Source of the DNA: Alphaproteobacteria bacterium
GTDB taxonomy: Bacteria; Pseudomonadota; Alphaproteobacteria; RF32; CAG-239
Direction of reading: 5' to 3'
NCBI GenBank assembly: GCA_017475705.1
Contig: JAFVFB010000032.1
Coordinates: forward strand, 4,971-68,970
DNA length: 64,000 bases
A model generated the notes under the pieces. That model searched no databases. It was not told the DNA's origin and saw only the letters and a list, made by a program, of their open reading frames with translations. Positions 44,830-53,213 of this stretch are shown one piece after another. The position numbers and the translations under genes are program-made. Every line of letters starts with the position of its first letter. The stretch's first letter is position 1.

Positions 44830-46617
44830 ATGACTAAAACATTAAATATTTTATGTGTGATTATTTTTTTAGCAGCGTTGAATGGTACGCCTGTTCAAGC
44901 GCAAGTCACTAAAAATAATCTGGATCAAAATGTAGATCAGTCACAAGGTAATTATGCTGCCACAAATCTAAATTATTTAGGTAATGGGTCAATTGGTATG
45001 ATGCAGAGTGCATGGAAAGATCCTCTGCAACATATGGGTGAAGGGCAGAGCCGCCCCGGTTATAGTAAATATTATTGGACGCCGGAGCTTGTTTTACCTG
45101 TCAGATTAAGAGAGGGCATGTATACGCTAATTAATTTCCCTAATTGGGAAGTTATCGAAAATGTATACTTAGGTGATGGTAACTCTTTCAGTGCCAGTAT
45201 AGAAGGTCCTTCTAGCCTTATGGTCTATCCAGATGTATCATCGTTCGTTGGTGTAGATACTAATATGATTGTTTTTGGTCGTTCTGGTAATAAATATGTT
45301 TTTTATGTTCAAAGCGAAACTGTAAATACAGACCGTATTACAAATTCAATAATAGATATAGAGGTTGTTAAAAAGAATCAAAATGCCAAAGGTATCGGTG
45401 GTATCAAAGGGGGAAACACACTTGGCGGTGGTCGCTTGGGTAGTGGCGTTTATTCTCAAGACAGCATGTTTGCAGACGCTAGCTACACTAGAAATAATCA
45501 ACGCGAGGATTGGATAGAAAATATACCGGTTGATCCAACACAATTTCGTTTTGATATAGAAGTTTATGTTCCTAATCCAGATGATATTATTATTGCGCCG
45601 GAGCGTGTATGGCGTGATAATATTTTTACATACATAGACCTAGGTGAAAAGGCACTCACAGCCGTGCAACGGCCAATCGTTACCTTGATTGTCGAACGCT
45701 CAGAAACACCAGTCGGTTTCAGAACGGCTGGTCCGCACAATCGTTTGATTATCGTTGAAGGTATGGGAGATATGGTATTGCGTAGTGGTAAGCGCATGGT
45801 TTGTTTGAAGTTACGTCGTGCAGATTCGGATGGCTTAGAAAATACAATTTATGCCAAAACGAATGAATGGGATGTTCAAAATCGGTACGCTTCGCAAGGG
45901 GGAGACGCGGCAATTTATGATAACCCCAATGGTGCTAATAATTCAGCATCTAATGCCGATAATTTCTTTAATTCCAACAGTTTTAGCAATGGTGCAGCAT
46001 CAGATTCCAATATTATCAATGATCTTGATAATTTACCCAAAGCCACACCGATTGTTTCACCACAGACAGCAGAGCCAAAGTTGACAGGTCAAACAGATGT
46101 TAAAGTCAATAATACAGAGGTTATAACCCCTGATTATAATAATCAAAAAGAGAATGTCGATGTTATCTATCAACCGCAAAAAAGTGCTGCAGATATAGCG
46201 AGCACAGATGGAAATCTCGGTAATTCTAATAACAATTCCAATCCGGTTTTGATTAAACCAGCCGCGGATAAGAGTGCCTCAAAGCCGGAAAAATCGCCTG
46301 AGGCAGAAGCCTTTCTGGCTCAAATTCGTAAAGAACAAAAAATGACGGCTGCAGAAAACAGTAATATTTCCATAGAACTTGGAACAGATGAAAATGTTAG
46401 CAACTTAGAAAAATTATGGAACAATATTTCTAAAAATTATGCTGCAGCACTTGGTAAGTATCAACCTTTTTACTCAGTGGATGCCCCAGCAGATGGCCAA
46501 GGTAAGGATGTTTTTCATTTACGAGTTGGCCCTGTTAAGAGTTTAGAAGAAGGGGATACTGTGTGCAGCCAGCTTGGTCGCAATGGAATTTTTTGTAGTG
46601 TGGTCAGAATACAATGA
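44830..46617 (+). CDS. VirB9-like T4SS outer-membrane core protein fused to a C-terminal SPOR-like domain
   Basis: Signal peptide ending VQA-Q, then two VirB9-type beta-domains (YYWTPELVLPVRLREGMYTLINFP...; IAPERVWRDNIFTYIDLG...RSGKRMVCLKLR). An Asn/Ser-rich linker follows, then a terminal ~85 aa (46363-46614): ISIELG...VFHLRVGPVKSLEEGDTVCSQLGRNGIFCSVV. Confidence 0.7.
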   Translation: MTKTLNILCVIIFLAALNGTPVQAQVTKNNLDQNVDQSQGNYAATNLNYLGNGSIGMMQSAWKDPLQHMGEGQSRPGYSKYYWTPELVLPVRLREGMYTLINFPNWEVIENVYLGDGNSFSASIEGPSSLMVYPDVSSFVGVDTNMIVFGRSGNKYVFYVQSETVNTDRITNSIIDIEVVKKNQNAKGIGGIKGGNTLGGGRLGSGVYSQDSMFADASYTRNNQREDWIENIPVDPTQFRFDIEVYVPNPDDIIIAPERVWRDNIFTYIDLGEKALTAVQRPIVTLIVERSETPVGFRTAGPHNRLIIVEGMGDMVLRSGKRMVCLKLRRADSDGLENTIYAKTNEWDVQNRYASQGGDAAIYDNPNGANNSASNADNFFNSNSFSNGAASDSNIINDLDNLPKATPIVSPQTAEPKLTGQTDVKVNNTEVITPDYNNQKENVDVIYQPQKSAADIASTDGNLGNSNNNSNPVLIKPAADKSASKPEKSPEAEAFLAQIRKEQKMTAAENSNISIELGTDENVSNLEKLWNNISKNYAAALGKYQPFYSVDAPADGQGKDVFHLRVGPVKSLEEGDTVCSQLGRNGIFCSVVRIQ

Positions 46618-52600: not shown

Positions 52601-53213
52601 TATTCTCGGAGGAATTAGAGGCTATCTAAATGGTCGAGGTGAAATAATAGACACACACGGTGAGATCATTACCACCATGGTGTTACCGGGAGGCTCATCA
52701 AATAAAAATTACAGCACAATTAAAAAAGGCTCAGTGCTTGGGTATTCCGGTCAAATAATAGGGCAGGTCGGTGTAGACGGCTCTGTCATCTCACGCGAAA
52801 ATAAAACGGTTGGTCGTGTTTTAAGCTCCGGACAAGTAATAGATAGCCAAGGGCAACTGCTAGGTGAAATTATAGAAGGGGATATTGTTATAGATAGACA
52901 AGATAAGGTTGTCGGCTTTGTAACGGCAGATGGACGAGTGATGGATAGCGAGCAAAAAGTCATCGGTAAATGCATTTCAGCAAATTTAGTTGTAGATAAC
53001 AATGGAAAAATTATGGGACATACATATAAAATAGGTGCTAATATACTTGGTAACAATGGTAAATTCTTTGGTCGTCTAGCACCGGATGGTAGTGTTCTCA
53101 GTATCACCAATGGTAAAATAGGCTACTTAAAGAGCAATGGCTCATATATAAACAGTCGCAACAAAGTTGCCGGCTATGTTTTAGATGAAGTTGCCCAAAA
53201 TCGGAGGGATTGA
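46614..53213 (+). CDS. Giant (2199 aa) membrane-anchored repeat protein, ~10-aa D-x-x-G-x-x-I-G units
   Basis: ATGA overlap with the virB9 stop. N-terminal TM helix LILIIGGIFGLLFLFGLLML, a beta-sandwich-like segment, then a continuous repeat array to the C-terminus. The 6.6-kb ORF is uninterrupted. Confidence 0.8.
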   Translation: MNEETRFEEYEKKTRKLILIIGGIFGLLFLFGLLMLSSDNEQYMPEEAAPTFVKDQSMLPVVDEEPEDVFINTGETNGAERKKPITISPSQINMNEFVLGVDTQNQSVLTIGTDGTESIHIDRVDLAEETEDGFVYRDRCKNRELRGDETCNVLISWVPHLPGNVQNNFKIIWYETRLGRTSAKSEEVSIRGKAVYPEDARIIGRSDDNYNQKKNLSGYRLAIGPNGEIIGYIDEAGNVYDLEGNLIGHVNEDGLIVDEKGNIIGVAQNMRLAYDKDGNIIGYAKSDGSVVDLQGNVIGQSLPDGSIIDEEGKTLGTAIEAGFVFDKDGKIIGKALPDGTVVDINDQNKIIGHLNSDGEAVDENGNVIGRVTASGDIAVDSEGNVVGVVMPDNSVVDANGNVIGDVAEDGSVYSLSNKKIGSNSDSHKIAYDKDGKALGYLDNDGKIVKFNKDGDLSKGKIIGHVGASRRLALDKDGNVIGWIDKDGNVYDFDGNLIGKVDKNGNIVDKNGKIIGKAGAYAKLALDKDGKVIGWVDDQGRVYDKNGKLIGYVDENGNIIAADNPETNMGKKRLALDENGNVIGWIDDDGNVYDFDGNLIGHVNDKGEIIDLNGQKIGTAGDYANLAYDNNGKVIGYIDDKGRVYGKDGKLIGFLDKDGNIIGTTGEIIGKVGMSRPIALDLSGKFMGYVDKNRNVIACGGAKIGRANRKGEILDNKRKVIGRVGEIRELAFSDSGIFIGYVDDKKRVIDCTGKIIGVVDKDGNIIGSTGELLGSAGIYKRLAYDKDGNVIGYVDKDGNVYDFDGNLIGKMLPDGTIVDKYGNVIGKAGAYRKMAVDKDGKIIGYVDENGNIVDARGRTIGKIKKDGNIVKISNQIIGKTCVRKKMVFAEKGRVIGYIETRNIAKNFSDRVIGSVKRSDVIDSRNMLIGKVGVRLNVVPQDKKIIGYIDEKNYARGDDAKVIGLLDAKGNVLAAKNNIIGKVDKKTPGVLRNRQKEIIGYIKGNNFAYDKANNIIGYVNNESEVLAAGEIICKACKSVKLAYDKNGNVIGYVDENGHVIGADGRILGYVDKNGNIIGTNGKIIGHVGEGRRLAYDKNGKVIGYIDPDGTVRDFHGNIIGHVDENGNIIDKDGNIIGYAGEERLLAYDENGNVIGWVDENGNVIDGDGNIIGVVDEDGNIIGISGEVIGHVGEGKNLAYDENGDTLGWVDEDGTVKDFTGKDIGYADDEGNVLKNTGEVIGSVGKVGRLAYDENGNVIGWVDEDGNVYDFDGNLIGKMLPDGTIVDKNGNVIGKAGNEIVGLALDKDGKVIGYIGKDGNVYTGDDRLLGYVDDEGNIAGISEDTLGKVSTNKRLAYDENGNVIGWIDEDGTVRDFDGNVIGYLGEDGLIRDLNGNVIGKSGDYAQVIVDDNGKIIGNIDKNGRMLSKNGTVDGVVSDDGLVYKSSGEIIGHAAPNGNGELKTVTRRAVLDKNGNVIGWLDENGNAYDFNGNLIGHLREDGTIVDENGNIVGYAGNDMQFIMDENGRIIGTVGDYANLVVDDKGGVIGYVGKDGKVYNSQGIAIGYVDENGNVMTARGVKIGAVIKKDLIAISPKGYSLGTVNNRGEVINNKEELIGRVLPTGLIKATENNEVIGRAVIGGKAIGWGCSQLGYVDRDGRVKSKGQDTGYRMLFDRSIVDKEGKYVGDVVKIGWAHDDKCNIIGKVDYDGYVYNGKGEYIGCSNPDGSILNKEGQKIGQVYEQRYALYHSGEFMGTMGPDGIIKSGSTAVGCANLEGEVLNRDGFIIGHVIDKVQAYDLDGNFINTLSPYKYESEEAIPDTKILFDSLLVDTKKEVKGIILPEKNIIVSANGNILGRLFADGYVYNSKGVAVEKIVSDGSAFYSGRLGRLLPRGNVVDFYGDVIGFVNDNAEVINSIGKVLGRIDAKGRMFNDKGEYKGGIVRSGVGVGYDGSYLGYASKSGKVIDADGNTIGSVSSDGHILDLNKQIIGEVTKEDLVIDILGGIRGYLNGRGEIIDTHGEIITTMVLPGGSSNKNYSTIKKGSVLGYSGQIIGQVGVDGSVISRENKTVGRVLSSGQVIDSQGQLLGEIIEGDIVIDRQDKVVGFVTADGRVMDSEQKVIGKCISANLVVDNNGKIMGHTYKIGANILGNNGKFFGRLAPDGSVLSITNGKIGYLKSNGSYINSRNKVAGYVLDEVAQNRRD
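47260..53190 (+). repeat. Intragenic degenerate tandem repeat array (30-nt unit, ~150-nt super-unit) with several near-identical long copies
   Basis: Examples: 48999-49070 versus 50397-50468 (70/72 nt identical) and 50040-50084 versus 50352-50396 (45/45). The peptide unit (D/N)x(D/N)Gx(V/I)IGxV recurs throughout. Confidence 0.85.

Follow-up and report, generated by a model that had tools for sequence, protein, structure and literature searches.

VirB10 is the textbook case of a single polypeptide that spans both bacterial membranes, coupling ATP use at the inner membrane to the outer-membrane channel of the type IV secretion system (T4SS). In a 64,000-nucleotide stretch of DNA from an alphaproteobacterium of the RF32/CAG-239 lineage (contig JAFVFB010000032.1, positions 4,971 to 68,970; hereafter the window), the gene that carries the VirB10 barrel domain is separated from virB9 by an open reading frame (ORF) for a 2,199-residue protein built mostly of repeats. 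What is this protein, which we call X, and how does it relate to VirB10? A sequence-only reading had taken it for an extra gene without a counterpart and for a structural part of the machine. Our analysis makes it almost certain that X is a structural component of the T4SS. It does have a counterpart, as related loci carry one fused VirB10 of 2,290–2,354 amino acids (aa) in its slot, and we consider it probable that X is the inner-membrane-anchored N-terminal half of a giant VirB10 encoded as two adjacent genes, X (virB10-N) and virB10-C.

X, VirB10-C and their fused relatives

The X gene (46614..53213; coordinates are those of the window, and features lie on the plus strand unless stated otherwise) begins with an ATG at 46614–46616 that overlaps the virB9 stop codon (TGA, 46615–46617) in an ATGA. 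The reading frame, found again as first described, is uninterrupted over the full 2,199 aa. By Pfam, the flanking genes are CagX family and TrbI, in agreement with the earlier placement of X between virB9 and virB10. A broken or mis-assembled ORF had been named as a concern, and this is not what we found. DNA copies of the X repeats are 60–81% identical (maximum, 81%), the repeat finder Tandem Repeats Finder (TRF) detected no tandem array in X DNA, and a second contig (L001, ENA ERZ27256838) encodes an identical X; mis-assembly of X is therefore unlikely. L001 differs from the window by three single-nucleotide polymorphisms and a 21-nt indel, all elsewhere than in the X protein. The spacings between the DNA repeat copies of X are multiples of 51 and 156 nt.

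Homology searches returned two classes of proteins: proteins of 1,216–1,581 aa with repeats of the β-flower family only, and dozens of proteins of ~2,200–2,600 aa in which β-flower repeats are joined to a C-terminal TrbI/VirB10 domain. The few giants of the second class that have a source name are listed as "MAG: Alphaproteobacteria bacterium" (MAG, metagenome-assembled genome), and NCBI labels the giant fused proteins "hypothetical," "DUF3659 domain-containing," or "TrbI/VirB10 family." Residues 1–215 of X, comprising a tail, a transmembrane (TM) helix, and an immunoglobulin-like (Ig) domain, align with the N-termini of the fused VirB10s. Eleven positions are invariant in this alignment (Y10, G22, P89, G100, G133, F134, C140, C151, W157, P159, and W173).

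The gene order tells the same story. Fused loci read virB8, small ORF, virB8, virB9, VirB10 (2290 or 2354 aa), virB11, and in split loci, the window among them, the order is virB8, small ORF, virB8, virB9, X, VirB10-C (~1,400 aa), virB11, after which comes the engB-yidC-rnpA-rpmH neighborhood. The X and VirB10-C pair fills the virB9-virB11 slot and together supplies the TM helix, linker, and barrel; X alone has no Pfam match to TrbI (PF03743), which sits on the next gene, VirB10-C. N-terminal homology and the shared operon slot therefore argue that X is the N-terminal half of VirB10 and not an additional component.

To place the arrangement among genomes, we scanned for the TrbI domain and recovered a related domain in 267 GTDB species genomes; the split-locus counts below refer to the best 80 of these. 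An upstream X-type ORF with the conserved tail is present in 76 of the 80 loci and is complete in 59, and the remaining four loci have too little upstream sequence or no adjacent ORF. VirB10-C opens with a signal-peptide-like segment in every one of the 80 loci that has enough sequence. Complete copies of X range from 1,037 to 2,204 aa across the split loci. Within the window's own subclade (TrbI ≥69% identical) complete copies measure 1,990–2,204 aa, so that 2,199 aa is typical; X in this subclade is ~800 aa longer than in more distant split subclades (~1,040–1,570 aa). Human, ruminant, deer, mouse, and rabbit guts are the sources of the related MAGs, which are labeled Alphaproteobacteria or, in some cases, Acetobacter, Azospirillum, or Rickettsiales; these labels probably correspond to the GTDB order RF32. 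A literature search found nothing that combines VirB10 with DUF3659 and no description of either the fused or the split form, and the literature found on RF32/CAG-239 consists of microbiome surveys.

X has the short cytoplasmic N-terminal tail and single inner-membrane TM helix of a VirB10 (aa 1–38, 46614..46727). AlphaFold2 (AF2), run with a 19-sequence alignment, modeled a TM helix at residues 5–38 followed by a disordered acidic linker, and a hydrophobicity scan gave one segment, in line with the tail and single helix that had been read from the sequence. Because basic residues precede the helix and acidic residues follow it, the topology is predicted to be N-in. The large C-terminal part should accordingly lie in the periplasm, which favors the periplasmic placement proposed earlier.

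The Cys-containing segment noted before as resembling a β-sandwich is modeled with confidence as one (aa 85–195, 46866..47198; pLDDT 85–94), and it carries the conserved C140 and C151; the model continues past it with hairpin repeats. By Foldseek, it is an ASH/PapD-like Ig domain of the MSP fold: matches with a probability of 1.00 included HYDIN (2e6j; TMt 0.72, root-mean-square deviation [rmsd] 2.9 Å), with VesB (4lk4; rmsd 2.4 Å over 112 columns) and the ASH domain of CEP192 (6fvi) also matched. Pfam ASH is sub-threshold, seen on orthologs of X (E = 5.5e-4 on one), and a profile search with the N-terminal region of X gave nothing significant. Using phmmer with residues 1–215 against 1.84 billion representative proteins, we found the full module only in X-type proteins, fused proteins, and gene fragments; we identified no VirB10 of short, ordinary length that carries it, a result blurred by the fragments among the matches.

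Two side observations concern this region. In the same library, the Ig domain alone (aa 82–168) matches tandem arrays in unrelated giant proteins, such as P0121 (4358 aa, 35 stretches) and P0124 (2404 aa, 18 stretches); the domain is part of a bacterial Ig-repeat family that is widespread and that Pfam detects only below threshold. Just past the Ig domain (X aa ~196–206, window ~47200–47230), the aligned fused VirB10s and most split-type X proteins have a CxxC motif (DCNFCD or DCVICE). This motif is absent from the window X and from its whole subclade (L010–L041), which have EDARIIGR instead.

The gene that follows X, virB10-C (53215..57330), encodes a 1,371-aa precursor with Pfam matches to TrbI (E = 5.6e-30) and Bflower_2 (E = 4.2e-40). 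Its start is likely the TTG at 53215, 1 nt past the X stop codon, rather than the overlapping ATG at 53185. Read by eye, the first 27 aa (53215..53295) form a predicted Sec-type signal peptide, MQIRISKIGKIVMALFLVVQTQSIAYA, followed by ADIS, and the mature N-terminus xDISAIDFNG is conserved. About 79 VirB10-C orthologs have equivalent signal peptides and the mature motif: an n-region, an h-region, and an AxA-type signal peptide, then a near-invariant EITAIDFNGDLIGKVIPDG. The mature protein continues with irregular β-flower-type repeats of 17-aa period (~aa 28–900, 53296..55914; Pfam and periodicity) and an acidic Pro-rich linker recognized by composition (~aa 905–1000, 55927..56214), which is likely the counterpart of the proline-rich region of VirB10. 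The TrbI/VirB10 β-barrel domain (56458..57045; Pfam PF03743, NCBIfam T4SS_VirB10/ComB10) is 48–59% identical to those of fused and split relatives, and the protein ends in an Asn-rich tail after the barrel. In this poly-N tail (window ~57180–57200, L001 ~20581) the two contigs differ by the 21-nt (7 Asn) indel, the only length polymorphism seen at the locus between them.

The two genes are tightly joined. The final codons of X (…AAT CGG AGG GAT TGA) contain a GGAGGG Shine-Dalgarno sequence for virB10-C (53203..53208), and a GGAG-type core is found within the last X codons in 76 of 80 split loci. The 3′ end of X, AAY-CGG-AGG-AAY-stop, carries this GGAGG ribosome-binding site and is near-invariant (76/80 loci). 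In most loci, VirB10-C starts 1–3 nt past the X stop with TTG, GTG, or ATG, usually one of the first two. This layout suggests translational coupling of X and VirB10-C. At the protein level, the split forms have near-invariant new termini, GYVLxEVA[KQ]NRRN* at the end of X orthologs and EITAIDFNG at the mature N-terminus of VirB10-C, and both motifs are absent from all 85 fused proteins. Only the split clade has the signal peptide, the ribosome-binding site inside X, and the conserved new termini; the fused giants do not.

We considered the NRRN tail as a docking peptide and downgraded this candidate. Its two Arg codons are nearly always CGG AGG, the Shine-Dalgarno sequence of the next gene, and the neighboring Val and Ala codons vary synonymously. 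Because the embedded ribosome-binding site explains part of the conservation, the C-terminus of X cannot be read as a docking peptide. Programmed frameshifting or readthrough was rejected: the stop-to-start offset and the frame differ among split loci, and a signal peptide always follows, so frameshifting is not a consistent alternative.

The repeat array of X

Repeats fill most of X, as had been noted, from about residue 216 to 2199 (47259..53210; Pfam, periodicity, and AF2). The sequence-only reading could not assign them to a family. Pfam gives strong matches to two β-flower families of clan CL0395, namely Bflower_2 (PF21785; E = 4.5e-148, 484.3 bits against a gathering threshold of 38, 24 stretches) and Bflower (PF21784; E = 1.9e-99, 328.5 bits against a threshold of 25, 13 stretches), and X also matches DUF3659 (E = 2.7e-62, 207 bits). 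We therefore regard the repeats, on these strong matches, as members of the β-flower family. This fold was defined in 2023 from AlphaFold models as a shallow barrel with 8, 10, or 12 short strands and with [DNEQ]xxG on its hairpin "petals"; neither a function nor a PDB homolog was known (Durairaj et al., PMC10584680). The β-solenoid proposed for X does not fit this description, since β-flowers are small closed barrels of hairpin petals (PMC10584680).

X carries the semiconserved [DNEQ]xxG at its hairpin tips, with strands alternating with turns in the AF2 model. We counted 86 copies of the motif GxxhG (h = I, L, V, M, or F), far above the 14.9 ± 3.6 of shuffled sequences, and 93 of [DN]x[DNEQSKT]G. 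Autocorrelation of residues 225–1470 peaks at 17, 52, and 104 aa, and the last ~730 aa show the 17-aa period and its multiples only. The repeat unit is thus a hairpin of 17 aa (10 + 7), each half with a [DN]xxG turn, and by this period the array holds ~115 hairpins. The unit of about 10 residues reported earlier corresponds to the longer half of this hairpin and is not the true period. Three hairpins make one 52-aa super-repeat with the consensus LAYDKNGNVIGYVDEDGNVYDFDGNLIGYVDKDGNIIDKNGEVIGKAGEYRR, beginning LAYDKNGNVIGYVDEDGNVYDFDGNLIGYVDKDGNIIDKNGEVIGKAG…. Super-repeats of about 50 aa had also been reported; they exist, at 52 aa, but are clear only in approximately residues 471–1403 (48024..50822; periodicity and AF2 block model), a regular zone broken by a less regular stretch at aa 833–1038.

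We modeled residues 471–832 with AF2. The block is all-β (mean pLDDT 80.8), with strands of 3–5 residues alternating with turns and a strand of 13–14 residues recurring every 104 aa, that is, every six hairpins. The spacing of the long strand suggests that two super-repeats form one structural unit; a unit of six hairpins is compatible with 6-fold barrels and is not proof of them. When the repeat block was compared with the PDB by Foldseek, there was no global match; the likeness was local, between hairpin repeats (Rhs, choline-binding, and fascin; TM-score ~0.1), and is uninformative as to the overall fold. A PDB sequence search with X gave one marginal match (VgrG, E = 0.0077).

Despite its size, the array is conserved in position. 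X residues 1–2199 align to residues 1–2196 of X from other species at 62–69% identity with 7–18 gap positions; repeat blocks are 51–66% conserved and the Ig domain 80%. This pattern indicates that the whole X array is under purifying selection. The fixed length argues for an architectural role and not for antigenic or rheostat variation like that of CagY, the repeat-expanded VirB10 of Helicobacter pylori. Near-identical direct DNA repeats and strain-to-strain change of the array, the marks of the CagY type, were not found for X.

Origin and possible function of the X and VirB10-C pair

To our knowledge, all canonical VirB10s are single polypeptides, which makes the split most simply the derived state. 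A neighbor-joining tree of TrbI domains contains one bipartition with all 80 split proteins on one side and none of the 85 fused proteins there, and the split appears to have arisen once. The ancestral form would have been one polypeptide of ~2,200–2,600 aa, as in the relatives, ordered as cytoplasmic tail, TM helix, ASH/PapD-like Ig domain, ~1,600 aa of β-flower repeats, acidic/Pro linker, and TrbI barrel. In the window's clade, X retains the tail, the TM helix and the Ig domain together with a β-flower array; VirB10-C retains ~870 aa of β-flower repeats, the linker, and the outer-membrane barrel and has gained a predicted Sec signal peptide, with which it would reach the periplasm on its own. 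An alignment of one pair is compatible with fission: residues 1–1366 of the X-type protein P0007 align to residues 1–1446 of the fused P0025, and residues 38–1313 of its partner VirB10-C align to P0025 941–2154 as one high-scoring segment pair.

How might the two proteins work? X would be a type II (N-in) inner-membrane protein whose tail, like that of canonical VirB10, points toward the ATPases of the T4SS, and its Ig domain and ~115 hairpins would lie in the periplasm. VirB10-C, exported by Sec, would form the outer-membrane core with VirB9 and a VirB7-like lipoprotein. Translational coupling would hold the two at a fixed ratio. The X array could bind non-covalently to the array that extends from the VirB10-C barrel; together the two would form a two-piece bridge, or a scaffold in the periplasm, in place of the single covalent VirB10 bridge. 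Alternatively, the associated arrays might build a ring or cage in the periplasm, comparable with the rings that the Cag and Dot/Icm machines have there (PMC9371333). We offer more tentatively the specific proposal that this large clade of mammalian-gut Alphaproteobacteria runs a two-polypeptide VirB10 joined only non-covalently, through arrays of ~2,000 and 870 aa per protomer, as a multi-megadalton periplasmic scaffold of a fixed length under selection; the evidence leaves this rather short of probable.

Several points weigh against reading X as the missing half of VirB10. The way in which X and VirB10-C work together, including any binding between them, is proposed from sequence and gene layout. 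Part of the conservation at the C-terminus of X is due to the embedded ribosome-binding site. The split pair holds ~2,850 aa of repeats against ~1,650 aa in the fused relatives. In mapping by end-segment alignments and HMMs, the N-terminus of VirB10-C falls best, and fairly consistently, at about residue 320–370 of the fused proteins, and X maps collinearly onto them from residue 1 to ~1450–1840, with a weak and inconsistent position for its C-terminus. The overlapping maps fit duplication and complementary loss better than a clean break. Given this mapping and the larger repeat content, tandem duplication with complementary loss is as possible an origin as fission, and under it X could be an accessory paralog and not the missing half. 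The AF2 pTM is low (0.39), and the array, read from secondary structure and pLDDT, may form closed "flower" barrels or another hairpin architecture. All sequences come from MAGs or metagenomes, and neither a VirD4 coupling protein nor VirB6 was recognized among the proteins of the 64-kb window.

The most serious competitor, which we nevertheless judge unlikely, makes X a neofunctionalized VirB10 paralog: a tandem duplicate without the barrel that serves as an accessory periplasmic scaffold, possibly binding peptidoglycan or lipid or acting as a spacer or ruler around the machine, with VirB10-C working without an inner-membrane anchor. The overlap of X (1 to ~1450–1840) and VirB10-C (from ~320–370) on the fused proteins and the summed repeats, larger than in the fused forms, are what it would predict, and the peptidoglycan-binding SPOR domain of the window VirB9 is in keeping with it. 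Mapping inside repeats is inherently ambiguous, however, and VirB10-C has lost the tail and TM helix on which all canonical VirB10s rely, leaving X as the one protein that retains them. The tight linkage of the genes, with a ribosome-binding site inside X, and the fact that X and VirB10-C are never apart in the 76 loci where both are readable also favor two halves of one component.

That X is an independent surface adhesin or fiber, or an Rhs/YD toxin carrier merely located beside T4SS genes, is very improbable. A loose likeness to YD/Rhs repeats had been noted from the sequence, and it survives only locally. RHS_repeat and TIGR01643 YD_repeat reach E ~1e-22 over the whole protein, but only when summed, with no single stretch passing alone; Rhs cores are the top local Foldseek matches of the repeat block, but at a TM-score of 0.11 and an rmsd of 28 Å, and the β-flower score is far higher. 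The motif DPxG[LWMIV], including the DPxGL form, is nowhere in X, which has no toxin domain and ends in repeats. The ASH-like Ig domain does also occur in tandem arrays of unrelated giants, yet the N-terminus of X is homologous to VirB10 and forms a signal-anchor, and no outer-membrane export module was recognized in X. Less probable still is that the split is an artifact or a product of decay (a frameshift, a mis-assembly, a pseudogene, or a single protein produced through programmed frameshifting or readthrough): the two ORFs do abut in different frames in the window, repeat genes are prone to assembly errors, and a Shine-Dalgarno sequence beside a stop codon bears a superficial likeness to the frameshift site of prfB, but the split recurs in 76 of 76 readable loci from many independent studies, with signal peptide, ribosome-binding site, and start codon conserved past the stop, with offsets and frames too varied (mostly 1–3 nt) for any single frameshift to have been conserved, and with two assemblies agreeing on an X whose DNA repeats are at most 81% identical.

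If X is indeed the N-terminal half of VirB10, the split, in at least 76 species and with its ends apparently co-translated, is a natural experiment on the need for a covalent bridge. A VirB10 joined only non-covalently would mean that the core complex can function without an unbroken VirB10 chain, and it would give the "dark-matter" β-flower fold its first known function, that of a structural module that self-associates within a secretion machine. The fold is now placed in a defined machine and cell compartment. An array that is conserved in length and not hypervariable points to an architectural role rather than one in immune evasion.

Known secretion systems and the surrounding locus

The fused giants (P0025, 2290 aa; P0085, 2354 aa) share with the window pair the N-terminal module of X, the repeat family, the TrbI barrel, and the virB9-virB11 slot, and differ in being one polypeptide where the window clade has two genes. 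Repeat-expanded VirB10s are already known in CagY and DotG, and the proteins described here are a third type, with another fold, a larger repeat mass, and, in this clade, two genes. Like them, CagY is a VirB10 enlarged several-fold by repeats N-terminal to the VirB10 domain, in an "expanded" T4SS core with a CagX-type VirB9 (PMC9371333). The CagY repeats are described as α-helical modules (Delahay 2008, as cited in PMC9371333), and its DNA repeats recombine, changing the array (PMC6761968). In contrast, X consists of β-hairpins, its DNA copies are at most 81% identical, and its array is positionally conserved across species; CagY is also a single polypeptide, whereas X and VirB10-C are two.

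DotG (IcmE) of Legionella and Coxiella has a similar layout, with a TM helix, a variable repeat middle, and a C-terminal TrbI domain, and varies from 1,000 to over 1,500 aa between species (PMC6761968). It is a single polypeptide with pentapeptide repeats, unlike the window pair, whose β-flower repeat mass of ~2,850 aa is far larger; no Pentapeptide family is among the Pfam matches of the window proteins. From the β-flowers of Durairaj et al., X takes its sequence family and the [DNEQ]xxG at the hairpin tips, but those described are for the most part solitary ~100-aa domains, some belonging to lipoproteins, to which no function had been assigned (PMC10584680), whereas X chains ~20 or more domain-equivalents inside a T4SS subunit.

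The window locus resembles the rvh T4SS of Rickettsiales. The order virB8-virB7-virB8-virB9-virB10-virB11 is typical of rvh, in which RvhB10 is of ordinary size. The window has the matching order of virB8, virB7-like gene, virB8, virB9, virB10, and virB11 and is likewise chromosomal; it also contains uvrC, addAB, ATP synthase F0 with b/b′, DciA, and yidC-rnpA-rpmH. It differs from rvh in that no VirB6 paralog family was recognized in the window, where five unannotated, secreted-looking ORFs follow virB4, and in that virD4 is not adjacent in the window. Uncultured low-GC gut Alphaproteobacteria from humans, ruminants, rodents, and rabbits carry this chromosomal rvh-like T4SS.

Upstream of X, the two virB8 genes and the small ORF between them occupy 42951..44819 (Pfam and signal reading). 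The small ORF (43772–44047), with a probable start at ~43829 or 43859, has a lipoprotein signal (…VVFSMLILAAC; lipobox LAAC) and probably encodes a VirB7-like lipoprotein. The virB9 gene that follows (44812..46617; CagX family by Pfam) encodes a 601-aa protein in which residues 527–599 form the SPOR peptidoglycan-binding domain (E = 2.7e-5), preceded by a long low-complexity Asn/Ser linker. SPOR is unusual for a VirB9 and suggests a core complex anchored to the cell wall. Downstream of virB10-C lies the gene for the virB11 ATPase (57352..58332; Pfam).

The five ORFs after virB4 (31960–42944; 379, 751, 234, 454, and 1823 aa) occupy the place of the rvh virB6 paralogs and have no significant Pfam or NCBIfam match. 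Their identity as VirB6 paralogs is not supported: a single hydrophobic segment is present at each N-terminus, the proteins do not look polytopic, and Pfam matches none of them significantly. AT skew in the region is strongly positive (0.17–0.29), and the 1823-aa ORF has a sub-threshold match to Bflower_2 (E = 0.002). A TrbC/VirB2 pilin-like protein (28409–29044) is unusually long (211 aa), with ~5 hydrophobic segments, and may be a tandem-duplicated pilin.

No tRNA or Rfam feature was found in the 64-kb window, which has a GC content of ~38%. One fused-type relative (L006) has a VirD4-like gene ~9 kb upstream of the locus, encoded on the opposite strand. On the minus strand of the window (16926–27148), a type IVb pilus cluster adjoins the T4SS genes and encodes a bundlin-like pilin, T2SSF, T2SSE, a PilO-like protein, a secretin, and TcpQ.

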